DNA of 25,506 bases, taken from Nitrososphaerota archaeon (GTDB lineage: Archaea; Thermoproteota; Nitrososphaeria; Nitrososphaerales; JAHFOH01). The translations under genes were made by a program, and so were the position numbers. Shown piece after piece: positions 5,690 through 23,112 of the stretch (position 1 is its first letter; every line of letters starts with the position of its first letter). The stretch covers positions 1 to 25,506 of the forward strand of contig JAHFOH010000004.1 of the NCBI GenBank assembly GCA_023266955.1. Reading direction: 5' to 3'. The notes beneath the pieces were generated by a model. That model made no database searches, was not told the origin of the DNA, and was given only the letters and a program-made list of their open reading frames with translations.

Positions 5690-7378
5690 TTAGTGACAAA
5701 CAGCTCCTAAAGAGGCAGACTTGACGAGCATCGCGTACTTAGCCAAGGCTCCACGAGTATACCTAGGCTTTGGAGGCTTCCATCTCTTCAGCCTCTTTCT
5801 AATCTCGTTCTGCGTTAGTTCTATCTCTAGTTTTCTTTTTATCGCGTCTACGAGAATTGTGTCTCCGTCTCTAACAGCAGCTATCGGCCCACCTACAACT
5901 GCTTCAGGTGCTACATGCCCAACCATCAGACCGCGCGTTGCACCAGAGAATCTTCCGTCGGTGACAAGCGCTACTTTATCGCCTAATCCCTGACCGATAA
6001 TCATAGCCGTTACAGCGAGCATCTCCCTCATTCCAGGCCCGCCCTTCGGCCCCTCATAGCGTATCACGACCACCTCACCGGCCTTGATCTCCCTCTTCTC
6101 CAAAGCTCTGAAAGTCTCTTCTTCGCTGTCGAAGACATGCGCAGGGCCCCGATGCCTGAGGTTCTCAACGCCGGAAACTTTTAGGACTGCACCTTCAGGC
6201 GCCAGATTGCCTCTCAGGATAACCAACGAACCGGTGCGATGTATCGGATTCTCTACAGTTCTCACCACATCTTGGGAGCTAGGGAAGGTCAAGTCTCTCA
6301 GGTTTTCCCTGACAGTCTTACCCGTAACAGTTAGTGCATCGCCGTTAAGCAGTCCTGCGTCCAACAACTTCTTCATTACCAGAGGTACGCCCCCAACATT
6401 GTCAAGCTCAGCCATGACATACCGGCCTCCCGGCCTCATGTCAGCTATGTGTGGTGTTCGACCGCTTACTCGGTTGAAGTCGTGAAGATCCAGTTTGACT
6501 TTGGCCTCATAAGCTATGGCGAGTAAGTGTAGAACCGCGTTAGTTGACCCACCCATCGCTACTACTACGGCCATAGCATTCTCCAAGGCTTCATATGTAA
6601 TGATGTCACTCGGTCTGATGCCATTTTCTAGCAGCGCCAAGACTGCTGCACCGCTTTTGACAGCCATCTGAAATCGTTGTTCATCAACTGCTGGCGGCGA
6701 AGCACTCCCCGGTAAAGAAATGCCCACGGCCTCAAGAGCTGAGGCCATAGTGTTGGCTGTGAATAGACCACCACATGATCCTTCACCCGGACAAGCGCTA
6801 ACTTCTAGCTCCCTTAACTGCTGAAGAGTCATGTTACCAGTGGAATAAGCTCCAACCGCCTCATACACATCTTGGATGGTTACGTTTCTTCCGTCGAATT
6901 TTCCTGGGAGTATGGTCCCGCCGTATAGGAATACCGCAGGAAGGTTGAGTCTAGCGATAGCCATAACCGAACCAGGAAGGCTTTTGTCACATCCAGCCAC
7001 TGTTACCAAACCGTCAAAACGCTCTGCGATAACCATTAGTTCTATCGAATCAGCGATGACCTCCCTGCTCACTAGAGAAGCCTTCATACCCTCGTGACCC
7101 ATGGCGATGGCATCGCTGACGGCTATCGTCCCGAACTCAAAGGGAGTCCCGCCAGCGGCTTTAACCCCCTCCTTAACTTTCTTGGCAACTCTGTCCAAAT
7201 GATAGTTACATGGGGTGACTTCATTCCACGTACTGGAAACTCCGATGAAAGGTCTCGCTAGGTCTTCATCGCTCAGACCCATGGCTCGGAGCATCGCTCT
7301 ATGCGGAGCTCTTTCAATGCCTTCAGTTACTTCCCTGCTCCGATGCTTAAATTTGCCAACATCCTCAGTGGCAGACAT
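5690..7378 (-). CDS. ilvD: Dihydroxy-acid dehydratase
   Basis: [76 protein letters not shown]. Confidence 0.97.
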
Positions 7379-7700
7379 GATTTTGACGATCTCCGGGGTT
7401 CAAAACATTTGATGACATTTAAAATCCATGCGTTATAGAGGGCTGAAAGAAGGTCTAGATACCGCAGAAGAGCTGCTCGCACTGGGATACCGACTTGAAC
7501 CCTTAATGGGCCTTAGGGTCATGCTTGGGTGTCATCGCGTTGATTACCACCTTAATATGTAGCACATCTTGGGCTACACTTCTCCAGATCGCAACTCTTG
7601 ATGCTTGTAGAGCAAGATTTAGGTGAGTTGCATAGTCGGCTTCTTGTAACAAGTGAATCCTTTTGAAGGGATTATCTTAACAGCATCGCCATACTTTACC

Positions 7701-7714
7701 AGAAACCTTATTAA
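7701..7714 (+). promoter_or_regulatory. BRE/TATA promoter (AGAAACC-TTATTAA) of the ilv-leu operon
   Basis: TTATTAA at 7708-7714 lies 27 nt before ATG 7742, the same spacing as the asd and pheA promoters, but about 190 nt before ilvB. Confidence 0.6.
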
Positions 7715-7741
7715 CCAATCAGGAAATTCGCCGTCAACTAA

Positions 7742-7837
7742 ATGTCGCATAATGTCGCAGCGGTGAGTGGTGCCTTCAGGCCCTCACCTGTAGTGATTGC
7801 TGCGAGTTTGATTCTCGTTATTATTCTTCTCTTGTAA
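7742..7837 (+). CDS. Putative ilv-leu operon leader peptide (31 aa, Ile/Leu/Val-rich)
   Basis: MSHNVAAVSGAFRPSPVVIAASLILVIILLL*: 14 of 31 residues are I/L/V, including 12 of the last 15 and all of the last 9. It is the first ORF after the TATA box, upstream of the BCAA operon. Confidence 0.75.
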   Translation: MSHNVAAVSGAFRPSPVVIAASLILVIILLL

Positions 7838-7874
7838 AGCCCACAAAAAGCAAGTTACCTGTTGCTTGTGGGCT
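7838..7874 (+). terminator. Attenuator-like hairpin directly after the leader stop codon
   Basis: AGCCCAC (7838-44) / GTGGGCT (7868-74) plus AAGCAA (7848-53) / TTGCTT (7862-67), 3-A bulge, 8-nt loop, followed by GTTTCTCCC. Confidence 0.55.
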
Positions 7875-7900
7875 GTTTCTCCCAGTTAGAGGTGACTCTT

Positions 7901-9616
7901 TTGGCCCAAATGTCCGGCGCAAAAGCCTTGATGGAAGCGCTTCGGCGCGAAGGTGTAGACGTAGTCTTCGGTATTCCTGGCGGAGCCAACCTCCCCATCT
8001 ATGATGCTCTCTATGATTCGGGGATTAGGCATATCCTAGCACGTCATGAGCAATCGGCAGCGCACATGGCGGACGGATTTGGCAGAGTTAGCGGCAGACC
8101 AGGAGTCTGCATGGCAACCTCTGGACCAGGTGCCACTAACCTAGTTACGGGTCTCGCAACTGCCTACATGGATTCTTCACCCGTCGTAGCGATAACTGGC
8201 CAAGTCCCAAGAGCGATGATAGGCAAGGATGCGTTTCAGGAGACGGACGTAATTGGGGTCGTCACTTCTATCACAAAGTACACGTTCCAACCCAAGAAAA
8301 GTAGTGAAATTCCTGAAGCCATCAAGAAGGCATTCTATATAGCTTCAACAGGTAGACCCGCTCCGGTTCTAGTTGACATTCCGAAGGACGTGCAGACGGA
8401 AGTCGAAGAGATGAACTTTCCTGACAAGGTTGAGATTCGAGGCTACAGTCCTCAAAGAACTCCTGACCCGATTCAGATCGAACGCGCTTCTGAGATACTG
8501 ATGAGAGCCGAAAGGCCAGTTCTATGGGGAGGTGGAGGCATTAGGATCTCTAACGCGTCCCAGCCGTTCCAAGCCATAGCGGAGCTACTCCTGGCTCCAG
8601 TAGTTACCTCGCTTCAAGGTAAGGGCGCATTTCCCGAGAACCATCCTTTGTCCCTAGGTCCCATGGGAATGCACGGCAGGGCAGAGTCGAATAAGCTGGT
8701 GCAAGAGTGTGACGCCCTGCTTGCAGTGGGAGTTCGCTTTTCAGATAGAACTACCGGCAAAGCGAGCGACTTCTGCCCTGGCGCTAAAATTATACATCTT
8801 GATGTAGATCCTTCTGAGATAGGGAAGAACAAGGCAGTAGAAGTATACATTGTAGGTGATGCGCAAGAAACACTAAATCAACTCTACTCTTCTCTCTCAA
8901 ATAGGATGGACAAGAGAGATGGCCCTTATCCCTGGCTCCAGAGAGTAAAGGAAGTTCGGGAAGAACTGCGTAACATCCCAGGCTACAGAGAAAACTCTGC
9001 CGACTTGTCTGGACCAAAAATTGTGAGGAAACTGAGAGAGATCCTACCTCCAGATGCCATCCTCACAACCGGAGTAGGTAGGCACCAGATGTGGGCAGAG
9101 TTGCACTACAAGGTTCTGAAGTCGAGGACTTGGATCACATCTACCGGTTTGGGGACTATGGGATTTGGCCTTCCAGCAGCAGTAGGTGCTAAAGTTGCTA
9201 GACCTGATGTACCTGTGGTGGACTTGGATGGGGATGGATCGTTCCTGATGACGGAAAACTGCCTTGCCACTTGCATAGATGAGGGCATACCGCTAACAGT
9301 CGTAATCCTCAACGATAACAGTCTCGGCATGGTTGAACAGTGGCAGCGAATCTTCTACAATAGAAGGTACATGGGAGTCAAACTAGGCAAAAGCCCCGAC
9401 ATGGTCAGGCTCGCTGAAGCATACGGGGCACAGGGCATCAGAGTTGGTTCGCTCGAAGAGTTTGAGAGATCATTGAAACAGTCCATCAACGACGACGTAG
9501 TAACTGTCATTGACGTCCCCGTTTCGCCTGAAGAGGACGTATTCCCATTCATGCCTCCCGGGAAATCTCTGAAGGATACGATTCACGGAGCACCGCAGGA
9601 GATGGCTGTCTTTTGA
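7901..9616 (+). CDS. ilvB: Acetolactate synthase, large subunit
   Basis: FGIPGG, RHEQSAAHMADG, TSGPGATN, ITGQV, GTMGFGLPAA, GDGSF..NNSLGMVEQWQ TPP motif. Start reassigned from 7862 to TTG 7901, 5 nt after the RBS GAGGTGA; ATG 7910 is the alternative. Confidence 0.96.
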   Translation: MAQMSGAKALMEALRREGVDVVFGIPGGANLPIYDALYDSGIRHILARHEQSAAHMADGFGRVSGRPGVCMATSGPGATNLVTGLATAYMDSSPVVAITGQVPRAMIGKDAFQETDVIGVVTSITKYTFQPKKSSEIPEAIKKAFYIASTGRPAPVLVDIPKDVQTEVEEMNFPDKVEIRGYSPQRTPDPIQIERASEILMRAERPVLWGGGGIRISNASQPFQAIAELLLAPVVTSLQGKGAFPENHPLSLGPMGMHGRAESNKLVQECDALLAVGVRFSDRTTGKASDFCPGAKIIHLDVDPSEIGKNKAVEVYIVGDAQETLNQLYSSLSNRMDKRDGPYPWLQRVKEVREELRNIPGYRENSADLSGPKIVRKLREILPPDAILTTGVGRHQMWAELHYKVLKSRTWITSTGLGTMGFGLPAAVGAKVARPDVPVVDLDGDGSFLMTENCLATCIDEGIPLTVVILNDNSLGMVEQWQRIFYNRRYMGVKLGKSPDMVRLAEAYGAQGIRVGSLEEFERSLKQSINDDVVTVIDVPVSPEEDVFPFMPPGKSLKDTIHGAPQEMAVF

Positions 9617-10086
9617 TCCAAATCTACATCTTGTCCGCTATAGTTGAGAACAAGCCCGGAGTTTTGTTCAGAGTCTCTAGCATGATAAGACGAAGAGGCT
9701 TCAATATTGAGAGCATTACCGTAGGCGCCCTTAAGGAAAAGGATCTCTCTCGAATGACTCTAACAATAAGAGCTGACGAGACGACTGTCGAAAACGTCGT
9801 AAAACAGCTCCGCAAACTCATAGACATACTTGATGTGAGTGTTTTTGAAGCTAAAGATACAGTTGCAAGGGAACTGGCATTAGTGAAGCTTAGCGCCGAC
9901 GATGCTAAGCTCATTCTTGAGCGAACCCCTGCATCAAACTGTCGAATTATCGATTCTTCATCGGACCCAGTCGTGCTCGAGATTACTGGTACTGCAGAGG
10001 AGATCGATTCGTTCTTTGAGGCTGCAGATAGATTCAGAGCTATCGAAGTTTCTAGAACAGGAATTACAGCGTTGTCGAGGGGGTAA
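9613..10086 (+). CDS. ilvH: Acetolactate synthase, small regulatory (ACT) subunit
   Basis: VENKPGVLFRVSSMIRRRGFNIESITVG, RELALVK, EVSRTG; 4-nt overlap with ilvB. Confidence 0.93.
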   Translation: MIQIYILSAIVENKPGVLFRVSSMIRRRGFNIESITVGALKEKDLSRMTLTIRADETTVENVVKQLRKLIDILDVSVFEAKDTVARELALVKLSADDAKLILERTPASNCRIIDSSSDPVVLEITGTAEEIDSFFEAADRFRAIEVSRTGITALSRG

Positions 10087-10088
10087 AA

Positions 10089-11678
10089 GTGGCGGAAAGC
10101 GACATCCCGGACAATCAGCCTTTTGTTAGAATCTTCGACACCACACTTAGGGATGGAGAGCAGACTCCAGGCGTAGCCTTGACCCCTGAAAAGAAGCTGC
10201 AGATAGCACGTCAACTCGACCGGCTTGGGGTAGATACAATCGAAGCAGGTTTCCCAATAACTTCACAGGGAGAACGCGAAGCGATCAAGCTTATCGCTAA
10301 GGATGGTCTTCGTGCCGAAATCTGTGCGTTGTCTCGTGCAGAAAAGGAAGACATTGATGCAGCCATAGGCTGCGGCGTATCTGCAATCCACATCTTCCTC
10401 GCGGCTTCAGATCTGCACCTAAAGTATAAGCTAATGATCACTAGGGAGGAGGCTCTACGTAATGCTGTCGAGGCGATCGAGTACGCAAAGAGACATGGCG
10501 TAACAGTCGAATTCTCAGCCGAGGATGCAACTAGGGCAGATCAAGAGTTCCTAGTTCGTTTCTTCAGATCCGCTTCTGAGGCTGGGGCAGATAGGCTTGA
10601 CATACCTGATACTGTGGGCGTCATGACGCCCGAGAGAATGTCCAACCTTGTAACAAAAATCTACTCTGCATGCGCCGCTCGTATCAGCGTCCATTGCCAC
10701 GACGACTTTGGACTAGCGGTAGCAAATACCCTAGCAGGAATCAAGGCAGGTGCTAGTCAAGCTCATGTAACCATCAATGGCCTCGGTGAGAGAGCGGGCA
10801 ACGCCTCCCTAGAAGAAGTAGTGATGGCACTTCATGAGCTTAAGGGAATCAAGACAAGAGTAAACACTAGATTGCTGTATGAGACGTCTAGATTAGTGTC
10901 AAAACTTACTGGCGTGATAGTTCAACCGAACAAGGCAATCGTTGGAGAGAATGCATTTGGACATGAATCAGGTATACACACACACGGAATTCTGGCGAAT
11001 CCATTGACGTACGAACCTTTTGATCCTTCTGCCTTGGGTCGGGCTAGGTGGCTTCAGGCAGGAAAACATGCTGGCACGCATGGAATAGAGGCGCAGCTAA
11101 AGGCAATGCGCCTGTATCCTGGTAGGGAGGAATTAAAGGAGATAGTAAGCAAAGTGAAGGAGCTTGGTGATCTGGGTAAAAGGGTAACTGATTCCGACCT
11201 CTACCTAATTGCCGTGAATGTGACGAAGAGAGACCGATCTGACCGCGACCTCGTGAAACTGGTCAATCTTGAAGTCAAGACTGGCGTAGGCATTACGCCC
11301 ATAGCTCATGTTGAGCTCAGAATAGGAGAGAAGATTCATTCCAGAACGGAGGTCGGCGTAGGACCGATTGATGCTGCAATAAAGGCGATTCAAAGTATAA
11401 CGAGTGGAAGCGCAAATATTAGACTAAAGGAGTACAGACTTGACGCAATCACTGGAGGTTCGGACGCTCCGGCGGAGGCCATCATAGTGGTCGAGGATAA
11501 GGATGGGTATACGGCTTCTGCCAGGGCCATAGGCGACGATGTTGTGGTTACAAGCGTCCAAGCTATGATACAAGGAATCAACGCGATTTTACTTAAGAAC
11601 ATACCTTCAACATATGTAACCAGAGCGGAGACAAAGTCTTCTCTTATGCCCCCTGGCGAAGAAATTGACTCTAAATGA
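10089..11678 (+). CDS. leuA: 2-isopropylmalate synthase (LeuA/CimA family)
   Basis: FDTTLRDGEQTPG, EAGFP, FSAEDA, PDTVG, HCHDDFGLA, GLGERAGN, HESGIH, C-terminal regulatory domain (GVGPIDA). LeuA versus CimA specificity cannot be settled by eye. Confidence 0.88.
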   Translation: MAESDIPDNQPFVRIFDTTLRDGEQTPGVALTPEKKLQIARQLDRLGVDTIEAGFPITSQGEREAIKLIAKDGLRAEICALSRAEKEDIDAAIGCGVSAIHIFLAASDLHLKYKLMITREEALRNAVEAIEYAKRHGVTVEFSAEDATRADQEFLVRFFRSASEAGADRLDIPDTVGVMTPERMSNLVTKIYSACAARISVHCHDDFGLAVANTLAGIKAGASQAHVTINGLGERAGNASLEEVVMALHELKGIKTRVNTRLLYETSRLVSKLTGVIVQPNKAIVGENAFGHESGIHTHGILANPLTYEPFDPSALGRARWLQAGKHAGTHGIEAQLKAMRLYPGREELKEIVSKVKELGDLGKRVTDSDLYLIAVNVTKRDRSDRDLVKLVNLEVKTGVGITPIAHVELRIGEKIHSRTEVGVGPIDAAIKAIQSITSGSANIRLKEYRLDAITGGSDAPAEAIIVVEDKDGYTASARAIGDDVVVTSVQAMIQGINAILLKNIPSTYVTRAETKSSLMPPGEEIDSK

Positions 11679-11712
11679 CAGTGAATTACAGTAGTATAAT
11701 CTTGAGGTTCTA

Positions 11713-12756
11713 ATGACCAAATACAGGATCTGCCTGCTCCCAGGAGATGGAGTCGGTCCCGAAGTAAGTGAGGCCACTTTGCAGGTGTTGAATGCTCTAG
11801 CCGACTACCTAGACTCAAAGCTTGACATCCGGTTTATCGAAGGAGGCGATAACTACGCTCAAAGGTATGGCCAACCTCTTCCCGAGGAGGCTATACTTGC
11901 GATCAGGGATTCCGACGCGTGTCTAAAGGGTCCTGTTGGGGCCACCGCGATGGATGTAACGGTCAGGCTGAGGCAAATGTTTGATCTCTATGCGAATGTT
12001 AGACCAATAAAATCGTACTCAAACGTTCAGAGCTTAAGTGATAACGTCGACTTCGTCATAGTCAGAGAAAACACTGAGGATCTTTACAAAGGATTTGAGT
12101 TTGAGTTGGATGATACCACCGTAGCGCTGAGGGTAATTACAAAGAAAAGCTGCCTCAGGATTGCAGAATATGCTTTCAGGCTGGCTCGTGAACGGAACAA
12201 CAAGAAAAGCGTGGTCGCCGTTCACAAGGCTAACGTCATGCGAAAGACCTGTGGCACTTTCCTTGCTGCGTGTAGGGAAGTCGCTAGGAGTCATGAAGAA
12301 ATCAACTTCTCTGATATGCTGGTCGATACAGCAGCTATGAACCTCATTCGAAGACCTGATTCCTTTGACGTTATAGTTACAACAAATGTGTTTGGAGATA
12401 TTCTGTCCGATGAAGCAGCTCAAATTGTCGGTGGGCTGGGAATGGCTCCTTCTGCGAATATTGGTGAAAATTTTGCGTTGTTTGAGCCAGTTCATGGGTC
12501 AGCCCCTGACATAGCTGGCCTTGGGGTTGCGAACCCATTATCAATGATACTTTCTGCTAAAATGATGCTCGAATGGATAGGCTCGACGCGTAATGATGAT
12601 AAATTCAGGAAGGCTGCAGCTTTCCTGCAGAGAGCGGTAGAGAGGACGCTGCTTCAGGGTGTAAAAACTCCAGACATCGGTGGCACCAGTAAGACTACAG
12701 ATGTGGCTTCGGCTGTACGTGAATCCCTTTCCTTAGGCGTTCGATCATTAGCATGA
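11713..12756 (+). CDS. leuB: 3-isopropylmalate dehydrogenase (archaeal isocitrate/isopropylmalate DH family)
   Basis: LPGDGVGPEV, LYANVRP, VRENTEDLY, VHKANV, NVFGDILSD, FEPVHGSAPDIAG; operon context. Confidence 0.9.
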   Translation: MTKYRICLLPGDGVGPEVSEATLQVLNALADYLDSKLDIRFIEGGDNYAQRYGQPLPEEAILAIRDSDACLKGPVGATAMDVTVRLRQMFDLYANVRPIKSYSNVQSLSDNVDFVIVRENTEDLYKGFEFELDDTTVALRVITKKSCLRIAEYAFRLARERNNKKSVVAVHKANVMRKTCGTFLAACREVARSHEEINFSDMLVDTAAMNLIRRPDSFDVIVTTNVFGDILSDEAAQIVGGLGMAPSANIGENFALFEPVHGSAPDIAGLGVANPLSMILSAKMMLEWIGSTRNDDKFRKAAAFLQRAVERTLLQGVKTPDIGGTSKTTDVASAVRESLSLGVRSLA

Positions 12757-13727
12757 CTCCATTCAACTATGTCTGGATGAATGGTAACTTTGTTACTTCT
12801 AAGGACGCTACTGTCCCTATCCTTACTCATACTCTGCACTACGGAACCGGAGTTTTCGAAGGAATACGTGCCTACCCCGTCGGCAATGATTTAATCATCT
12901 TTAGACTTCAAGAGCACATGGAGAGGCTCATTCGCTCAGCAAAGATGGTCTACCTGAATCCTCGCTACACTGCTGACCAACTTTCTATTGTGACGGTGGA
13001 ATTGATGAGAAAGAATGAAGTGCGTCGCTCGGCTTACATTCGCCCTATCATTTTCACGGGCTCAGAAAGTTTAGACTTAGATCTTAGAAAGTCCTCACTT
13101 CATGCAGCGATAGCAGTGATCCCTTTCGACAAGTACTTCGAAAAGGATGGTCTCAAAGCCTGCATCTCGAATTGGAGGAAAATATCAGATTCATCTTCGC
13201 CTACGAAGGCCAAAGCCTCCGGCAATTATCTGAATTGCGTTTTGGCTAAGACGGAAGCGGGAATTAATGGTTATGACGAAGCCTTACTCCTGAGCCAAGA
13301 TGGCACTGTCTGCGAGGGCTCCGGCGAGAACATTTTCATAGTTAGAAACAGAGAGCTTTACACCCCGCCATTATCCTCGCCAATACTCGCAGGTATTACA
13401 CGAGACTCTATTATCACACTAGCTCGAGATGATGGTATGCGAGTATTCGAGAAGGAGATTACGCGAGCGGAGCTGTACTCTAGTGACGAGGTCTTTCTTA
13501 CAGGCACAGCGGCTGAGGTATCATCAGTAGTAGAGATCGACGAGAGAAAGATAGGCAATGGAAGGAAGGGACCAATAACTACTAGGATACAGGAGCTGTT
13601 TTCCCTGCTACTTGCATGCAAGCTCGATAAATACTTCGCATGGCTCACTCATGTCTACACCGAGAATCAATCCATCAAGGCCGCAATCACTAAGAATAGA
13701 CAACCCAGAATGAAACGAAGGAGTTGA
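12753..13727 (+). CDS. ilvE: Branched-chain amino acid aminotransferase (class IV)
   Basis: LHYGTGVFEGIRAY, YIRP, KAKASGNY, EGSGENIF, LAGITR, EVFLTGTAAEV. Confidence 0.96.
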   Translation: MTPFNYVWMNGNFVTSKDATVPILTHTLHYGTGVFEGIRAYPVGNDLIIFRLQEHMERLIRSAKMVYLNPRYTADQLSIVTVELMRKNEVRRSAYIRPIIFTGSESLDLDLRKSSLHAAIAVIPFDKYFEKDGLKACISNWRKISDSSSPTKAKASGNYLNCVLAKTEAGINGYDEALLLSQDGTVCEGSGENIFIVRNRELYTPPLSSPILAGITRDSIITLARDDGMRVFEKEITRAELYSSDEVFLTGTAAEVSSVVEIDERKIGNGRKGPITTRIQELFSLLLACKLDKYFAWLTHVYTENQSIKAAITKNRQPRMKRRS

Positions 13728-13730
13728 GAG

Positions 13731-15176
13731 ATAGGCTCGACAATCTTTTCGAAGATTTTTGATGCGCATGTTTTAGCTGAGCGATCCGACGGTCAGTCGC
13801 TCATCTATATTGACAGGCATCTGACGCACGAAGTAACCTCGCCTTTGGCGTTCGAGGGGTTACGGAAAGCGGGCCGACGAGTAAGTAGACCAGACCTAAC
13901 CTTCGCAGTCATGGATCACAACGTGCCGACGGGTGATCGAGCGCTGCCTGTTCTCGACGACATGTCTGGCAAGCAGATGGATGCATTGGCTAGGAACTCG
14001 GCGGAGTTTGGTATCACATGCTTCGATTATTTAAGCCCCTTCCAAGGGATTGTCCACATCATCGGTCCGGAACTTGGGCTAACATTGCCCGGGACTACGA
14101 TTGTGTGCGGCGATAGTCATACTGCCACCCATGGAGCTTTTGGTGCCCTCGCGTTGGGAATCGGGACCAGCGAGGGTGAGCATGTCTTTGCGACCCAGGC
14201 GCTGTGGCTTCGAAAGCCGAAGCAGATGGATATTCGGCTCTCCGGTAGGCTACCAAATGGTGTAACTGCTAAGGACGTCATCTTATGGATCATTCGACGC
14301 ATCGGTACGGGTGGCGCGATTGGCCATGTCGTCGAATACACTGGCGACACGGTCGAGCAGCTTTCGATTGAGGAGCGGATGACACTGACAAACATGGCGA
14401 TCGAAGCTGGCGCACGAACAGCCATCATATCCCCTGACGAGAAGACTTTCAACTACCTTCGTAATGCACTATATGCTCCGCAAGGGGACGAGTGGGACGC
14501 AGCTGTCCAATACTGGCGTTCGCTTCGAACCGATTCCAACGCGCAATACGATACATCTTTGCATTTTGATGTGAATAACCTAGCCCCTCAGGTAACGTGG
14601 GGAACTAACCCCGCCATGACTGTAAGTGTGACTGAGAATGTGCCCTCGCCCGAGGATTTCGCTGACGCAAGTGACAAAGCGGCTGTGATGCGAGCGTTAA
14701 AGTATATGGGATTGCAGCCTGGCATGAAGGTCACCGACATCAGGATTGACGTGGTCTTTATCGGCTCCTGCACTAATGCACGGCTTTCAGACCTGATTGA
14801 TGTGGCGCGAGTCGTAAAGGGCAGACGCGTGACACCTTCGGTTCGAACGATGATTGTGCCAGGGTCCCAGCTAGTTAAGAGGCGAGCTGAGCAGCTAGGG
14901 CTGCACAGAATCTTCATAGAGGCCGGATTTGAATGGCGGAACTCTGGGTGTAGCATGTGCATTGCCATGAACGAGGACAAGCTCGGAAATGGCGAAAGAT
15001 GCGCAAGTACCTCAAACAGGAATTTCGAGAACCGCCAGGGACCTGGAGGACGCACCCATCTGGTAAGTCCCCTGATGGCTGCAGCTGCCGCGGTGGAGGG
15101 GAGGTTCGTGGACGTACGAGAGTTGGATTTGTTAAATGTTGAAGAGTTGGAGTTGAAAGGTGGATTTAATGCCTGA
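13731..15176 (+). CDS. leuC: 3-isopropylmalate dehydratase large subunit (long, bacterial-like type); apparent ATA start
   Basis: DHNVPT, CGDSHT, IGSCTNAR, GCSMC, STSNRNFENRQG. The conserved N-terminus (I)GSTIFSKIFDAHV..YIDRHLTHEVTSP lies upstream of the track's start (13845). It begins at ATA 13731, 7 nt after GGAG; in-frame TGA at 13725. Confidence 0.92.
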   Translation: MGSTIFSKIFDAHVLAERSDGQSLIYIDRHLTHEVTSPLAFEGLRKAGRRVSRPDLTFAVMDHNVPTGDRALPVLDDMSGKQMDALARNSAEFGITCFDYLSPFQGIVHIIGPELGLTLPGTTIVCGDSHTATHGAFGALALGIGTSEGEHVFATQALWLRKPKQMDIRLSGRLPNGVTAKDVILWIIRRIGTGGAIGHVVEYTGDTVEQLSIEERMTLTNMAIEAGARTAIISPDEKTFNYLRNALYAPQGDEWDAAVQYWRSLRTDSNAQYDTSLHFDVNNLAPQVTWGTNPAMTVSVTENVPSPEDFADASDKAAVMRALKYMGLQPGMKVTDIRIDVVFIGSCTNARLSDLIDVARVVKGRRVTPSVRTMIVPGSQLVKRRAEQLGLHRIFIEAGFEWRNSGCSMCIAMNEDKLGNGERCASTSNRNFENRQGPGGRTHLVSPLMAAAAAVEGRFVDVRELDLLNVEELELKGGFNA

Positions 15177-15795
15177 GCCTGTTCGCGAGGTTGTTGGCAA
15201 GGCGGCACCCTTAGAAGCTGACGATGTCGATACTGACCAAATCATCCCCGCTCAATTTCTCAAAGTGATAGAGAGGGACGGGTTGGGCAGGTATCTGTTC
15301 TATCGCTGGCGATATGATGAGCAAGGCAAACCCGTGCAGGGCTTTGTCCTGGACCGCGAAGAGTTTCGAGGTGCCGGGATTCTCGTAGTGGGTCGTAACT
15401 TCGGCATTGGTTCTTCCAGGGAGAATGCCGTTTGGGCCTTGATGGATGCAGGAATAAAGTGTGTCATAGCCACCTCTTTTGGCGATATATTCTACAACAA
15501 TGCCTCGAAGAATGGGCTTCTATGCGTCAAGTTGTCAGGAGAGAGCGTCAAGCACCTGAGAGAGAAGGCAAAATCGGGAACGCTAAGCCTAACCGTCTCT
15601 TTGGATGATCAGGTCGTCAATTATCTGGACGGCAAAATACCATTTGAGATCGAGACGCACATAAAGGAGAGGCTTCGCAGCGGATTGGATGATATCGCAA
15701 TGACGCTGTCAATGTATAAAAGTAAAATCAAGCACTATGAGGAAAAGATGCCGACCTTCCTTATGCCCAAGGCTCGCAGATCACCGTTGGAATAG
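15169..15795 (+). CDS. leuD: 3-isopropylmalate dehydratase small subunit
   Basis: DVDTDQIIPAQFL, NFGIGSSRENA, SFGDIFYNN, GLDDI; ATG 15169 follows the RBS GGTGG. Confidence 0.94.
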   Translation: MPEPVREVVGKAAPLEADDVDTDQIIPAQFLKVIERDGLGRYLFYRWRYDEQGKPVQGFVLDREEFRGAGILVVGRNFGIGSSRENAVWALMDAGIKCVIATSFGDIFYNNASKNGLLCVKLSGESVKHLREKAKSGTLSLTVSLDDQVVNYLDGKIPFEIETHIKERLRSGLDDIAMTLSMYKSKIKHYEEKMPTFLMPKARRSPLE

Positions 15796-15826
15796 TCGCC
15801 TCCCGGTAGCTACTGGATCTCTAGTT

Positions 15827-17011
15827 ATGAAACACATCGCAGGTCGCACTCGATTCTTTACGGAGTCAGTGATCCGGGAGATGACTCGCCTAGCCCAGCG
15901 ATATGGAGCCATCAATTTGGCGCAAGGCTTTCCTGATTTCCCAGCACCACTAGAGGTAAAGGAGGCAGCCCAACGTGCCATCGCTGCTGACATCAATCAG
16001 TACGCAATCACTTGGGGTGCGAAGTCACTCCGAGACGCCATCGCATGGAAGATGGGGCACTTTCAAGAAATGACGATCGATCCTGAGCGGGAGGTGACCG
16101 TGACATGTGGTGCGACTGAGGCGATGATGGCCACAATGCTGGCGCTTGTTGACCCCGGGGAGGAGGTCATTGTGTTTGAGCCCTTCTATGAAAACTACGG
16201 GCCTGATGCGATAGTCTCGGGCGCAAAGCCTCGGTACGTGCAATTAAGGCCGCCAACTTGGGAGTTCGACGAGGAGGAGCTGAAGAGTGCGTTCTCAAGC
16301 AGGACGAAAGCGGTTATAGTTAACACGCCGCACAATCCCACAGGGAAAGTCTTCACCCGATCAATGCTTCGCTCGATCGCCGATTTGTGCGTTGATTTTG
16401 ATGTTGTAGCAGTCACCGATGAGATCTACGAGCATATCCTGTACGATGGACGAGTGCACGTTAGCCTCGCTACCTTGAACGGGATGCAAGACCGAACTGT
16501 GACTATCTCGGGCTGCTCTAAGACATATAGTGTGACAGGTTGGCGAGTGGGATATACCGTAGCTGCGCCTCGGTGGACTGACGCCATTAAAAAGGTGCAC
16601 GACTTTCTGACTGTTGGGGCTCCTGCTCCCCTGCAGGAAGCCGCAGCCCTTGCTCTGCACCAGCCAGATAAATTCTATGTTAAGCTGCGAGAGCAATATG
16701 CGGAGCGGCGTCAGGTGATGCTTCAAGTGTTGCGAGAAGCGGGTTTTCCCTACTTCCCTCCGGAAGGAGCGTACTATGTGATGACAGAGATTGGACCGCT
16801 AGGAGCTGAGGACGATGTTGAATTCGCGAATTGGTTGGTTAAGGAGATTGGCGTTGCGACAGTGCCGGGGTCGAGCTTCTATCATGATCCAACTTTAGGT
16901 AGAGGATATATTCGCTTCGCGTTTCCCAAGACATTGAACACGCTTCGCGCGGCAGAGGAGCGTCTCGTTAAGATACGAGAAAGGCGCGTTAAGCTAGCCC
17001 GACACAGCTAG
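15827..17011 (+). CDS. Class I/II PLP aminotransferase (YbdL/methionine-glutamine-kynurenine transaminase-like)
   Basis: INLAQGFPDF, VTCGATEA, EPFYENY, NTPHNPTGKVF, DEIYE, SKTYSVTGWRVG, YIRFAF. Start taken as ATG 15827 (MKHIA..), after the leuD stop. Confidence 0.88.
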   Translation: MKHIAGRTRFFTESVIREMTRLAQRYGAINLAQGFPDFPAPLEVKEAAQRAIAADINQYAITWGAKSLRDAIAWKMGHFQEMTIDPEREVTVTCGATEAMMATMLALVDPGEEVIVFEPFYENYGPDAIVSGAKPRYVQLRPPTWEFDEEELKSAFSSRTKAVIVNTPHNPTGKVFTRSMLRSIADLCVDFDVVAVTDEIYEHILYDGRVHVSLATLNGMQDRTVTISGCSKTYSVTGWRVGYTVAAPRWTDAIKKVHDFLTVGAPAPLQEAAALALHQPDKFYVKLREQYAERRQVMLQVLREAGFPYFPPEGAYYVMTEIGPLGAEDDVEFANWLVKEIGVATVPGSSFYHDPTLGRGYIRFAFPKTLNTLRAAEERLVKIRERRVKLARHS

Positions 17012-17058
17012 GGATTATTCTTCGCAGTGAAATAGACTCACGCTCGACCGACCTTAAT

Positions 17059-17074
17059 TGCCGTAGCTGCGGCA
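17059..17074. repeat. Near-perfect 16-bp palindrome
   Basis: TGCCGTAGCTGCGGCA (reverse complement TGCCGCAGCTACGGCA) between the aminotransferase and the amidase. Confidence 0.5.
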
Positions 17075-17126
17075 TCTCACCGCAGACGGGTCAACTAGCT
17101 TTGGTCGCACACAGTACATTAGCCAT

Positions 17127-17133
17127 TTTATAT
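17127..17133 (+). promoter_or_regulatory. TATA box (TTTATAT) for the leaderless amidase gene
   Basis: 23 nt upstream of ATG 17157. Confidence 0.6.
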
Positions 17134-17156
17134 CAATCCTTTTCCAGGACGCTAGC

Positions 17157-18098
17157 ATGCCGCGACTGCACCACCTGGACCCGCAGTACGTCCACTTCCG
17201 ATGGGATAACTCGCTATCACGCGCACTTACTATCGATTCCGGCGACACTGTAGTCTTCGACCTCCAAGAAAACAGCGCCGGTCAAATCACCCGCACCTCG
17301 ACCAGCGACGCGGTCGCCAAGCTCGACCGCAACAGGACGTACCCACTCGGTGGCCCCATCTACCTGCGCGACGCGAAACCTGGCGATGCGCTCGAAGTTC
17401 AAATTCTGAAGCTACAGCCCGCCGACTGGGGGTGGACCGCCATCCTTCCCGGCTTTGGCTTACTGAGCGAGGAGCTGCCCGGGCCCTACCTAGTCCATTG
17501 GGATCTCTCGAACAAGCCAACAGCAAAAGGGATTCGGGGTGCCGCTGTGCCTATCGAGCCCTTCTGTGGCGTCATGGGAGTCGCCCCCGACGAACCGGGC
17601 TCCTTTCACCCCACTCCACCCGGCAAATTTGGAGGCAACATGGACATTCGCCATCTGACCGCCAGCAGCACACTGCGCTTGCCTGTCTGGGTGGATGGTG
17701 CGCTCTTCTCTTGCGGGGACTGCCACAGCGCCCAAGGGGATGGTGAGGTCTGCGGGTTTGGGATTGAAACGTCGATGCGGGTCACGCTGCGCTTCTACCT
17801 CCGGAGGCAGCTCCGCCTGACCTCGGCGGAGTTCGTCACTCGGAATGGGCTCACGCCGCGCACTGACCGCCGCGGCTATTACGTGACTACGGGCATCCGC
17901 TCCGACCTCATGGAAGGCGCACGTGAAGCGGTCCGTCAGATGATCGCCCACCTGATGGGTGCCTACGGTTTGAGTCGCCTTGATGCTTACGTGCTCTGCA
18001 GCGTCGCCGTCGACCTGAAGGTCAGCGAAGTGGTGGACAAGCCCAACTGGATCGTCTCCGCCTACCTGCCACTAAGCGTCATGCGCCGGACGGGTTAG
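17157..18098 (+). CDS. Acetamidase/formamidase family protein
   Basis: HFRWDNS, SGDTVVF, GGPIYLRDAKPGDALEVQI, PGKFGGNMDI, GDCHSAQGDGEVCG, AYVLCSVAVDL. Confidence 0.9.
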   Translation: MPRLHHLDPQYVHFRWDNSLSRALTIDSGDTVVFDLQENSAGQITRTSTSDAVAKLDRNRTYPLGGPIYLRDAKPGDALEVQILKLQPADWGWTAILPGFGLLSEELPGPYLVHWDLSNKPTAKGIRGAAVPIEPFCGVMGVAPDEPGSFHPTPPGKFGGNMDIRHLTASSTLRLPVWVDGALFSCGDCHSAQGDGEVCGFGIETSMRVTLRFYLRRQLRLTSAEFVTRNGLTPRTDRRGYYVTTGIRSDLMEGAREAVRQMIAHLMGAYGLSRLDAYVLCSVAVDLKVSEVVDKPNWIVSAYLPLSVMRRTG

Positions 18099-18264: not shown

Positions 18265-19668
18265 TCAGTGTTTTCCGAGACCAAAAGCTGAGTGAATAAC
18301 CCTAACCGCTTCTCGACTGTCGTTCTCCTTAACGACGAAAGATATGTTTAGCTCAGATGAGCCTTGAGCAACCATCCTCACGTTAATGCCCTTCGCGGCT
18401 ACGGCCCCGAAGACCTTCGCGGCAATCCCTGGCGTTCCCTTCATTCCAGCCCCTACGACTGCGATTACATTAACGTCATCCTCTGAAACTACTTCCTTCA
18501 CCTCTCCTCTTCCGAGGAGCGCTATTTCGAGGGCGTTGACGGCTCTTTGAACCATATTCCTCTTGACTACCATGCTTATGTTAGATTCTGAGACGCTTTG
18601 GGATATCATGAGAACATTTACTCCGTTTCTGCCCATCAGATCGAAGATCTTGGCTGCACTTCCTGGACGCCCAACCATGCTAGCTCCGGAGACAGTAATG
18701 ACGGCCACATCCTTCACTAGAGCTACGGACTTGACGATCTGGTTAGTGTCTAACTTCGTCGCTTCGGTTATCTTCGTCCCCGCATTTTGAGGGTTGAAGG
18801 TGTTCCTGATTCTTACCGGAATTCTCTTTTCCGCCACAGGCTCCAGAGCTCGTGGGTGCATAGCCTTAGCTCCGAAGACTGCCATCTCGCCCGCCTCTGC
18901 GTACGATACTTCATCAAGTAGTCTTGCTTCAGGTGCGATCTTGGGATCGCAAGTCATCAGTCCGTCTACATCACTCCATATCCAAACTTCATCGGCTTCA
19001 ATTGCCGACGCTACAATAGTAGCAGTAAAATCAGATCCGCCTCGACCCAGAGTGGTTATCTCTCCGTTTTGCGTCAAAGCTATGTAGCCCGTGATTACAG
19101 GCGTGGTGCGAGAAGATAGTAATGAGTCTAGAGTTTCCTTCACCTGAAGTCTGGTGACCTCCATTAGAGGGTAAGCGTCGCCGAAGTTTTCGTCGGTTAC
19201 TATGCCGCATTCGCCTCCCATGAGATACTTTGCGTGAAGACCCAAGTCCATAAGGGCGCCCCAAACGATAGGTGTGGATAGTCTTTCTCCGCATGAGAGA
19301 ATCCTGTCCTTCGAGCGGGGTGTGAGTTCTCGAAGAACGGCCACTGCCGCAGCTGACTTCTCTAATTCGTCCATTCCTGATTTCAAATATTCCGAAACCT
19401 TCCGTCGAATTTCTTGATCCTTTACCGCATCGTCAAGCGCTAGCCGGTGCCTTTCCTTTAAGGACGAAACAGACTTTTCAACGGCGTCGATGGCTCCCTC
19501 ACGTGCATTCTCCGTCAGCTCAATGAGTCGCTCGGTCACACCTTCCATGGCCGAGGCAACCAAAACGATCTCGTTGCTATGGCTATGGCTCTTTACTAGT
19601 TCGGCGATATGTCTAATCCTCTTCCCGTCATCCAATGAAGTCCCACCGAACTTCATCACAAGTTTCAT
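18265..19668 (-). CDS. lysC: Aspartate kinase with two C-terminal ACT domains
   Basis: VMKFGGTS, SAMEGVT, GERLS, TTLGRGGSDFTA, WSDVDG..DP, GAKAMHP, MISQSVSE, QGSSELNIS; ATGA overlap with hom. Confidence 0.95.
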   Translation of the reverse strand: MKLVMKFGGTSLDDGKRIRHIAELVKSHSHSNEIVLVASAMEGVTERLIELTENAREGAIDAVEKSVSSLKERHRLALDDAVKDQEIRRKVSEYLKSGMDELEKSAAAVAVLRELTPRSKDRILSCGERLSTPIVWGALMDLGLHAKYLMGGECGIVTDENFGDAYPLMEVTRLQVKETLDSLLSSRTTPVITGYIALTQNGEITTLGRGGSDFTATIVASAIEADEVWIWSDVDGLMTCDPKIAPEARLLDEVSYAEAGEMAVFGAKAMHPRALEPVAEKRIPVRIRNTFNPQNAGTKITEATKLDTNQIVKSVALVKDVAVITVSGASMVGRPGSAAKIFDLMGRNGVNVLMISQSVSESNISMVVKRNMVQRAVNALEIALLGRGEVKEVVSEDDVNVIAVVGAGMKGTPGIAAKVFGAVAAKGINVRMVAQGSSELNISFVVKENDSREAVRVIHSAFGLGKH

Positions 19669-21670: not shown

Positions 21671-21682
21671 CAAACTTTATAT
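21671..21682 (+). promoter_or_regulatory. BRE/TATA promoter (CAAAC-TTTATAT) of the aromatic operon
   Basis: TTTATAT at 21676-21682, about 210 nt upstream of the aspartokinase ATG and 41 nt upstream of a short ORF. Confidence 0.65.
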
Positions 21683-21723
21683 GAGTGGATTACGCGAGGG
21701 TGGCTATCAAGGTGGAGGCGATA

Positions 21724-21792
21724 ATGCGAGGCGATTACGTTTACATTAGCGAGAGTGGTTACCTTTTCGAGCTCGCCTCTATCGTCGGCTAG
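21724..21792 (+). CDS. Putative aromatic-operon leader peptide (22 aa; 3 Tyr + 1 Phe)
   Basis: MRGDYVYISESGYLFELASIVG*, with a strong RBS (AAGGTGGAGG; GGAGG 5 nt before ATG), just downstream of the TATA box. Confidence 0.6.
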   Translation: MRGDYVYISESGYLFELASIVG

Positions 21793-21894
21793 CATCTTAC
21801 CAAATATTCTAAGCGCGCTGTTACGCAATTTCTCCTCGAATCAAGTCGAAGCTGTGCCTCTTCAGCTACGTGAGATTGCGACGGAGGAGTTCTA

Positions 21895-23112
21895 ATGAGT
21901 GAAACTGTTGTAGTGAAGTTTGGCGGGTCGGTTTTGGAGAATGACCAGAAGATTCGTCGCGCAGCGGGCATGATTGAACAGATGCTAAAGGAATCGAAGG
22001 TGGTGGTTGTAGTTTCTGCTCTTAAGGGCACAACTGACGGTCTTATCAGGACGGCCCGAAGGCTTAACCCTAGAGCTTCAAAGGAACTCCTCGACGATAT
22101 CCTTGCCATGGGCGAGAAAACGAGTGCAAGGCTTTTCGCTGCTGCACTCTCAAGATTCGGCCTGAAACCTGTCGTAGTTGACCCCGGATCAGAGTACTGG
22201 CCAATTGTTACTGACGAGGGTCATCTGGATGCGAATCCCCTCTACGAAGAGACGTCAAAATTGATCAGAGAGAGGATAGTTCCGATCCTGCAGTCTGGAG
22301 CCGTGCCTATAGTCTGTGGGTTCCTTGGGCTCACTAAGTCTGGCAAGATTACGACGCTGGGCCGCGGGGGGAGTGATACTACAGCAACGCTGCTAGGCAG
22401 CTGTCTTCAAGCGAGAGAGGTTGTGTTGGTGAAGGATACGGAAGGGGTTTTCTCCAGCGATCCTGATAAGGTCACGAATCCGGTTCCTCTTGAGAGGTTG
22501 AATCTCGAAGAGGCCCAAATTCTGACTGCTGGTGGAGCTAAGTTTCTTCATAAGAAAGCACTAAAGTACTTGCAGAATGGAATCAAAGTAAGAATAGCCA
22601 GTCTAACCAGCGCCCCACTTACAGGAACCGTAATCGTCGGAGACATTCCTGATCTCTCATTGACACGTTCTGCAAGCGACATAACAATGTTCACTATTTT
22701 GGCGGACGATGTGATCGACGCTACAAAACTCTCCTTCATCATCGACGAGATCAAGAAAGCTGGGCGGGCAATTGCTGGCTTGACTGTCGAAGAAAAGTCG
22801 ATGATTGTCTATGTGGAAGGCGGGAAGAGTCTTCTTGTGAAAATTCATGACGTTATGTTAAAGCACCATATTGGGAAGGCGCTCACTTCGTTTGAAAATC
22901 TCTCGATAATAATTGTGAAGGGAAAGGCTCTTGAGACAAGCCCAGGTATGGTCCAAAGAGTTACCCAGCCCCTAGCACGAAAAGGGATCAACATCTACGG
23001 TCTGGAAACCATTGGTTCATCGATCAGGGTCTTCGTTTCAGAAGAAGACGCCGATAGAGCTCTCTCCTTGATAAAATCCGCATTGATGGTGAGCAATCAT
23101 GCAGGAAGTTAG
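21895..23112 (+). CDS. Second aspartate kinase (shorter archaeal type), first gene of the aromatic operon
   Basis: VVKFGGSV, SALKGTTD, MGEKTSA, TTLGRGGSDTTA, DTEGVFSSDP, GAKFLH, C-terminal ACT-like PG..RV..L...INI; RBS GGAGG. Confidence 0.9.
   Translation: MSETVVVKFGGSVLENDQKIRRAAGMIEQMLKESKVVVVVSALKGTTDGLIRTARRLNPRASKELLDDILAMGEKTSARLFAAALSRFGLKPVVVDPGSEYWPIVTDEGHLDANPLYEETSKLIRERIVPILQSGAVPIVCGFLGLTKSGKITTLGRGGSDTTATLLGSCLQAREVVLVKDTEGVFSSDPDKVTNPVPLERLNLEEAQILTAGGAKFLHKKALKYLQNGIKVRIASLTSAPLTGTVIVGDIPDLSLTRSASDITMFTILADDVIDATKLSFIIDEIKKAGRAIAGLTVEEKSMIVYVEGGKSLLVKIHDVMLKHHIGKALTSFENLSIIIVKGKALETSPGMVQRVTQPLARKGINIYGLETIGSSIRVFVSEEDADRALSLIKSALMVSNHAGS

Follow-up and report, generated by a model that had tools for sequence, protein, structure and literature searches.

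A putative leaderless leader ORF with an Ile/Leu/Val codon run and a stop-adjacent RNA hairpin precedes ilvB in Nitrososphaeria

A short open reading frame (ORF) rich in Ile, Leu and Val (I/L/V) codons lies directly ahead of the ilv-leu operon of a Nitrososphaerota archaeon, which raises the question of whether an archaeal ribosome could use it to sense branched-chain amino acids. The window, the whole stretch of DNA analysed here, comprises 25,506 nucleotides; it is contig C5 of a metagenome-assembled genome (MAG) of 1.67 Mb in 276 contigs with 78% completeness, and its sequence is also present in DNA runs of a groundwater metagenome. No RNA run was found to contain it, and the runs retrieved with the locus of a relative (L107) consisted of DNA-like contigs from related strains. 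A sequence-only reading of this DNA had described a TATA element, a gap of 27 nt and a 31-codon ORF, and the coordinates of all three were confirmed in the sequence (Table 1). The codon composition that it reported was likewise found: 12 of the last 15 codons and all of the last nine encode I/L/V, giving the C-terminal 15 residues VVIAASLILVIILLL, and the leader uses ATT for all four Ile and TTG (two), CTC (two) and CTT (one) for Leu. Three further I/L/V codons (V V I) occur at 7790-7798. No rare-codon bias was found in the sensor codons relative to the codon usage of long ORFs in the same genome. As I/L/V make up 25% of the codons in those long ORFs, nine in a row would be expected at about 4e-6 per position.

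Downstream of the ORF, the gene order ilvB-ilvH-leuA-leuB-ilvE-leuC-leuD given by the same reading was borne out by NCBIfam models, which added an aminotransferase gene. The arrangement, a short ORF with end-product codons before a biosynthetic operon, is that of an attenuator leader. The archaeal origin assigned to the operon also held, in that the best 80 ilvB relatives on genome contigs were archaeal MAGs without exception, the majority from Thaumarchaeota/Nitrososphaeria and a few from Bathyarchaeia. The host genome is the sole member of its family in the reference set, and the nearest ilvB showed 72% identity. No closer relative that would reveal the codon-level evolution of the leader was found in genome or metagenome contigs, so this leader could be compared only with distant orthologues.

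Table 1. Features of the ilv-leu leader region and its flanks (positions are those of the window)
Feature	Position	Strand	Details
ilvD	5690-7378	divergent from ilvB operon	upstream of the operon; NCBIfam
Archaeal promoter	7701..7714	+	BRE-like purine-rich AGAAAC 7701-7706, TATA-like CTTATTAA 7707-7714
Leader ORF	7742..7837	+	ATG 7742, TAA 7835-7837; 31 codons plus stop
Sensor codons L I L V I I L L L	7808..7834	+	run ends at final sense codon
RNA hairpin abutting stop	7838..7874	+	predicted fold, -19.0 kcal/mol, z = -4.3 vs shuffles
Short U-rich tail GUUUCUC	7875..7881	+	5/7 U including last stem base (UGUUUCU)
ilvB Shine-Dalgarno (SD) AGAGGUGA	7888..7895	+	within poorly structured spacer
ilvB, acetolactate synthase large subunit	7901..9616	+	TIGR00118, 738 bits (NCBIfam)
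ilvN (ilvH, small subunit), leuA, leuB, ilvE, leuC, leuD, aminotransferase	9613..17011	+	NCBIfam

The TATA-like box CTTATTAA begins 35 nt before the leader ATG, and no SD sequence was seen upstream of the leader ORF; both observations fit a leaderless start, as in the mycobacterial Cys leaders. In long ORFs of the same genome, the identical octamer peaks 32-35 nt before the first ATG. From this spacing we infer a transcription start a few bases 5' of the leader ATG; the ilv-leu mRNA probably opens with the leader ORF as a leaderless first cistron. GeneMarkS-2 placed 11 of 11 Thaumarchaeota in a class with leaderless first genes and ribosome-binding sites (RBSs) on internal genes (PMC6028130), which is the layout found here, a leaderless leader ORF followed by an SD before ilvB. 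The ilvB start is likely TTG 7901, located 5 nt past its SD; ATG 7910 encodes the first IlvB residue that aligns to relatives, and an ATG/TTG-GTT-GAA-ATG block is conserved at this place. GGTGA-like motifs occupy the equivalent position before ilvB in relatives. We also considered a leader-IlvB fusion made by read-through of the leader stop. In the window the two are in frame with no stop between TAA 7835 and ilvB (7835-7912), but spacers elsewhere are not multiples of three, and the shared frame looks accidental on this comparison.

The sequence-only reading had proposed that orthologous ilvB genes be searched for an upstream I/L/V ORF with free interchange of the three residues and a variable N-terminus, and this is what the ilvB orthologues of Nitrososphaeria and Bathyarchaeia revealed. 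The tail score of a locus is the number of I/L/V among the final 10 codons, taken at its maximum over the ORFs whose ends lie 15-110 nt upstream of ilvB. Of the 80 ilvB loci, 69% scored 7/10 or higher, whereas the reverse complements gave 0% and the shuffles 7.4%; the 80 loci are related to one another and do not amount to 80 independent trials, which applies to all statistics taken across loci. The shuffles were near-dinucleotide-preserving, and since the best-ORF score is a maximum statistic, the same procedure was applied to the reverse strand and to the shuffles. The tails of the related loci could be sorted into 30 families, with more than 4 of 12 positions differing between them. In a separate sample drawn across the order, 21 of 29 loci had a tail score of at least 6, and the leader was associated with ilvB across lineages down to 57% ilvB identity. 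A scan of the 1.67 Mb genome for the full architecture (TATA, a start 27-38 nt on, an ORF of 10-45 codons, a stop and a hairpin of -12 kcal/mol or lower) gave 16 sites, among which only the ilvB site combined an I/L/V tail with a downstream operon; no other operon of this genome had the same strict architecture in a convincing form.

The distribution of the leader is not uniform. A clear I/L/V leader was missing from some lineages (L001/L082/L111; L014, L015, L017, L092, L093 and L095; L102, L103 and L106). It was absent from Nitrosocaldus-type loci, from the complete 2.8 Mb Nitrososphaera-like genome of L106 and from the 3.2 Mb genome of L103. The closest relative, a UBA141-type genome with 72% ilvB identity, had a weak tail of 5/10, yet the hairpin at the stop was kept.

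Alignment of the tails from the stop codon backwards revealed a consistent anatomy. Across the 30 tail families, the I/L/V frequency was 0.53 at position -1, 0.97 at -2 and 0.63-0.83 from -3 to -8; it was about 0.4-0.7 from -9 to -12, and between -13 and -18 it was at most 0.31 at five of six positions and 0.41 at -15. I, L and V swap freely within the tails, while the N-terminal parts of the leaders are variable, polar and unrelated between relatives. Among 299 tail residues there were 4 Phe and 1 Met, and the positions not occupied by I/L/V were mostly polar or charged. The scarcity of Phe and Met together with these interruptions sets the tail apart from generic hydrophobic segments as well as from a U-rich RNA signal. 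A TATA-like octamer was located 27-38 nt (mode 32) before the in-frame start in 52 of 65 related leaders. In the Nitrososphaera group, we further took a Leu/Val motif recognised by its nucleotides alone and measured how far it lies from the promoter-anchored ATG. The distance was 36, 42, 45, 48 or 51 nt, always divisible by three, in all 21 distinct sequences. Taken together, the leaderless promoter spacing, the conservation of frame and a conservation that follows amino-acid class and not nucleotides suggest indirectly that the leader is translated.

Immediately after the leader stop we found a predicted RNA hairpin that the earlier reading had not mentioned; its first base is the first base after the stop codon. 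It contains 13 bp, divided into a lower stem of 8 bp (7838-7845/7867-7874) and an upper stem of 5 bp (7849-7853/7862-7866), which are separated by an AAA bulge (7846-7848) and closed by an 8-nt loop (7854-7861). Its position relative to the stop is shared among relatives: measured from the end of the stop codon, the hairpin start fell between -3 and +2 nt in 53 of 60 loci, and the stop codon often lay inside the stem (gap of -3 in 13 of 60). In 37 representatives, the mean folding energy of 45-nt segments showed a sharp minimum of -12.5 kcal/mol at the stop, as opposed to only -4 to -5 kcal/mol in the upstream flank and the spacer, and the spacer holding the ilvB RBS was the least structured part of the region. 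The 45 nt past 450 long-gene stops of the same genome averaged -6.3 kcal/mol, and 0.2% of them reached -19.

The 5' arms of the hairpin families are A/C-rich and the 3' arms G/U-rich. Because the sense strand folded better than the antisense strand in 24 of 29 hairpin families and 15% of the pairs were G.U, the predicted hairpin is an RNA element of the sense transcript; the same two observations ruled out its reading as a DNA palindrome or operator. An ordinary terminator also appears unlikely, as gene ends in this genome are without hairpins and the families do not share a U-run. In the 7 nt after the hairpin, 5 or more U occurred in 24% of families against a background of 11%, so the U-rich tail seen in the window is not a conserved part of the class. 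Archaea are not known to require hairpins for termination.

The arm sequences of the hairpin were unrelated between lineages. RNAalifold found no consensus among 23 Nitrososphaera hairpins, since they fall into three subtypes that do not align with each other, and a permissive Rfam search of 7300-8000 returned chance-level matches only, with no T-box, riboswitch or known RNA family. The base of the stem, CCCACA/UGUGGG in the window, was also seen in L004, L009, L084, L086, L097, L099, L114, L122 and L124, in families that have unrelated upper stems and loops. This shared base suggests either a common ancestral hairpin or a sequence-specific requirement at this site. In all 29 hairpin families, the last I/L/V codon was found at -1 or -2 and lay 3-11 nt (median 7) before the first paired base, a distance that fits steric action of a ribosome held there. 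The hairpin start and the last I/L/V codon did not show a compensating correlation across the 29 families (Spearman +0.31, p = 0.10).

The output side of the leader was more variable. In Nitrosopumilaceae the leader is present with a 40-nt spacer and little or no hairpin. In a variant group (L021, L036, L040, L123 and L153), the leader stop is directly followed by an SD-like GGAGGTGA, at a distance of only 21-22 nt from ilvB; the L123 copy pairs with the start region to form a small hairpin. The variant with an SD at the leader stop would suit direct translational control and not an RNA-level effect. The output side thus appears plastic in these two groups.

The comparison of relatives supports a cognate codon run, its position relative to the stop, leaderless spacing, a conserved frame and a sense-strand hairpin at the stop; from here we infer translation, stalling, the direction of the effect and the role of the hairpin. 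A ribosome-stalling sensor is the best reading of the cognate run, the leaderless start and the frame conservation. In the specific steric and kinetic model, which we regard as evenly poised between right and wrong, the leader would sense branched-chain amino acids and act through the hairpin at its stop. A ribosome would load at the mRNA 5' end just upstream of the ATG and, by translating the leader as a leaderless first cistron, would read the supply of charged tRNA-Ile, tRNA-Leu and tRNA-Val. With good supply, it would terminate and leave, and the hairpin would fold and serve as a negative element, by premature termination, pausing or cleavage before ilvB. Under a shortage of branched-chain aminoacyl-tRNAs, it would linger over the I/L/V codons at the end of the ORF. 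Once the last of these is in the A site, the leading edge of the ribosome would extend 0-10 nt into the 5' hairpin arm and prevent the base of the stem from closing, and stalling would lead to read-through and more enzyme. Bacterial ribosomes keep the mRNA single-stranded for about 9-12 nt past the first base of the A-site codon, and a ribosome with such a footprint, if held at the last sensor codon, would overlap the stem base by 0-10 nt.

This steric model has weak points. A ribosome stalled at -4 to -8 would not reach the hairpin, and a terminating ribosome would open it, so the model needs fast release at the stop. Position -1, the expected best stall site, is I/L/V in only 53% of families and is the least conserved sensor position. 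The weak U-run that is mostly absent in families, the gene ends without hairpins, the lack of a compensating correlation between hairpin start and last I/L/V codon, the Nitrosopumilaceae with little or no hairpin and the 5/10 tail of the closest relative also speak against it. The same sensor might instead work in a reversed geometry, which we hold to be unlikely. There, the folded hairpin would be the ON state: unstalled ribosomes at the stop would unzip the 5' arm and expose the 3' arm and the U-run to a termination or cleavage factor (e.g. aCPSF1/FttA or an RNase), or otherwise lower expression, whereas a ribosome stalled further upstream would act as a dam that keeps the hairpin closed. 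Consistent with such a geometry, a ribosome with its A site at -3 to -8 misses the hairpin and one at the stop covers 8-12 nt of the 5' arm; the G/U-rich 3' arms opposite A/C-rich 5' arms, the tie of the hairpin to a stop codon often enclosed in the stem and the lower I/L/V frequency at -1 point the same way. An upstream stall would need no run abutting the stop, however, yet every hairpin family has its last I/L/V codon at -1 or -2; in addition, the analysis revealed neither a factor nor a motif for its recognition, and most families lack the U-run. Translational attenuation of the mycobacterial poly-Cys leaderless small ORF (sORF) or ermC type, in which a structure hides the ilvB RBS until a stalled ribosome frees it, appears quite improbable. 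CUCACCU (7783-7789) and the loop GUUACCU can each pair with the SD AGGUGA, among 60 loci, masking of the 5' arm reduced RBS accessibility in 18 (a drop of more than 0.1) and raised it in 2 (a weak trend), and in four of the variant loci (L036, L040, L123 and L153) the SD comes directly after the leader stop and is enclosed in a small hairpin. Against this, the complementarity of the ilvB RBS was no better than in shuffles for the 3' half of the hairpin (mean z 0.11; window z 0.06), was if anything avoided in the I/L/V region (mean z +0.3 to +0.6) and also failed to exceed shuffles when an anti-SD was sought in the N-terminal half of the leader (window z = -0.79; mean z of families 0.12). The two SD-complementary sequences of the window were accordingly indistinguishable from chance. 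With the 5' arm masked, no alternative downstream fold was better than with a shuffled arm (mean z 0.06), and the RBS lies in the least structured stretch.

Explanations without a sensor were weighed against the same data. A translated leader might encode a hydrophobic micropeptide that has a role of its own, or might, as a starter cistron, do no more than recruit ribosomes or stabilise the mRNA 5' end; this we consider distinctly unlikely. The C-terminal 15 residues in the window are hydrophobic enough to resemble a membrane segment, and leaderless first cistrons are usual in the phylum. Yet the run is mostly 7-9 residues long and broken by D, R, K, H or E, and the tails do without F, M, W, A and G (apart from the few Phe and Met counted above), unlike a membrane helix; the exclusion of Phe and Met and the charged residues argue against a membrane peptide. 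What is conserved is the I/L/V class alone and not the sequence, and the element is tied to ilvB down to the 57% identity given above, with an architecture unique to the ilvB site in its own genome. It is very improbable, finally, that the region is untranslated and acts as an RNA or DNA signal in which U at the second position merely reads as I/L/V, with the hairpin as an independent protein-binding or processing site. Some leader stretches of the Nitrososphaera group are indeed conserved even at third codon positions. But a U-rich signal would be expected to contain Phe codons as well, and hardly any occur; the frame survives indels in all 21 sequences compared, the start codon stands at leaderless distance from the TATA box, and neither the reverse strand nor shuffles give such ORFs.

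The failed complementarity and alternative-fold tests bear on the claim that the locus follows the ilvL/ivbL design. That design implies alternative terminator and antiterminator hairpins, and in this respect the claim did not stand, as we found no conserved alternative pairing. In place of mutually exclusive structures, a single hairpin is conserved, and the tests point to neither a four-segment switch nor a masked binding site. A two-state switch linking the leader to the ilvB RBS was accordingly dropped as unsupported by the comparative complementarity and folding tests.

We compared the locus with the closest known systems. The enterobacterial ivbL-ilvBN and ilvL-ilvGMEDA operons have leaders of about 32 residues with Ile/Leu/Val runs, on which ribosome stalling is the sensor, and an I/L/V-run leader before cognate genes is found here as well. 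Those leaders possess an SD, fold through four pairing segments and end in a strong intrinsic terminator that has a long U-tract; none of these three features was found at the archaeal locus. In Corynebacterium glutamicum, the ilvBNC attenuator has the leader peptide IlvL (MTIIRLVVVTARRLP), and its expression depends on the leader start codon and the Val codons (PMC11857589, citing Morbach 2000). As described there, IlvL is, as here, encoded by a short Ile/Val/Leu-rich ORF before ilvB, and its transcript starts 1 nt before the leader start without an RBS, a leaderless arrangement (PMC11857589) like that proposed here for the archaeal leader. The bacterial system has a 292-nt leader with three hairpins (anti-antiterminator, antiterminator and terminator) and a short terminated transcript (PMC11857589); the archaeal locus, in contrast, has one hairpin at the stop about 60 nt before ilvB, no detected alternative pairing and an archaeal polymerase. 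The mycobacterial polycysteine leaderless sORFs of the 'Cys ribulon' are sensory first cistrons in which ribosome pausing on a cognate codon run is the signal (bioRxiv 10.1101/834739). They resemble the leader studied here in being leaderless first cistrons of a biosynthetic operon with a cognate run, and differ from it in their complementarity to the RBS: here none was detectable, duplex energies were no better than those of shuffles and the RBS lies in open RNA.

In the literature, a full-text search for archaeal leader-peptide attenuators, in a collection with few subscription journals, returned bacterial cases only. This agrees with the earlier statement that no leader-peptide attenuator of an archaeal branched-chain operon was known to have been characterised, and with a 2021 paper according to which no attenuation is known in Archaea (PMC8448881). 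Archaeal ribosome-profiling papers mention upstream ORFs in general terms only (PMC7261190, PMC11456600). We slightly favour the view that the leader belongs to a widespread archaeal class of ribosome-mediated amino-acid sensing and would represent the first attenuation-type control in Archaea, with a minimal design. Such a design would comprise a leaderless sensor ORF and, right behind its cognate codon run, one hairpin at the stop; a terminator/antiterminator switch would be lacking, and the output may proceed through archaeal-specific termination or cleavage machinery coupled to translation. As far as we know, regulation beyond the initiation of transcription is poorly understood in Archaea. 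If the class reading is true, archaeal ribosomes serve as metabolite sensors as they do in bacteria, and the translation of a leaderless cistron is functionally coupled to the fate of the downstream transcript. The promoter, sensor ORF and hairpin design is found in cultivable ammonia oxidisers and offers a handle on archaeal transcription-translation coupling and termination. It is also relevant to annotation, since gene finders do not call such leader ORFs, and the leader could serve as an amino-acid-responsive part in archaeal engineering.

Several minor observations were made elsewhere in the window. Two aspartate-kinase paralogues are present, at 18265-19668 (-) and 21895-23112 (+); one adjoins homoserine dehydrogenase and the other heads an aromatic-entry operon. 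This operon encodes an aspartate-kinase-like protein, ADH synthase, 3-dehydroquinate synthase II and aroD, which form the archaeal entry to aromatic amino-acid synthesis. About 100 nt before it lies a 22-codon ORF (21725-21793) with 3 Tyr and 1 Phe, preceded by a TATA at about 21673-21682 and an SD AAGGTGGAGG at 21709-21718. It could be a second cognate leader, although its enrichment is weak (4/22) and it failed the strict architecture filter. Within the ilv-leu operon, leuA and leuB pass the cut-offs of the archaeal-type subfamily models TIGR02090 and TIGR02088 (10089-12756), whereas for leuC and leuD (13845-15795) the best-scoring models are the long bacterial-type TIGR00170 and TIGR00171; given these model types, the operon may be a mosaic. 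Just past the operon, positions 17001-18000 have 60% G+C compared with about 49% on average elsewhere in the window; this stretch, which may be a foreign insertion, covers a 313-residue ORF (17157-18098) with a weak formamidase-like match.
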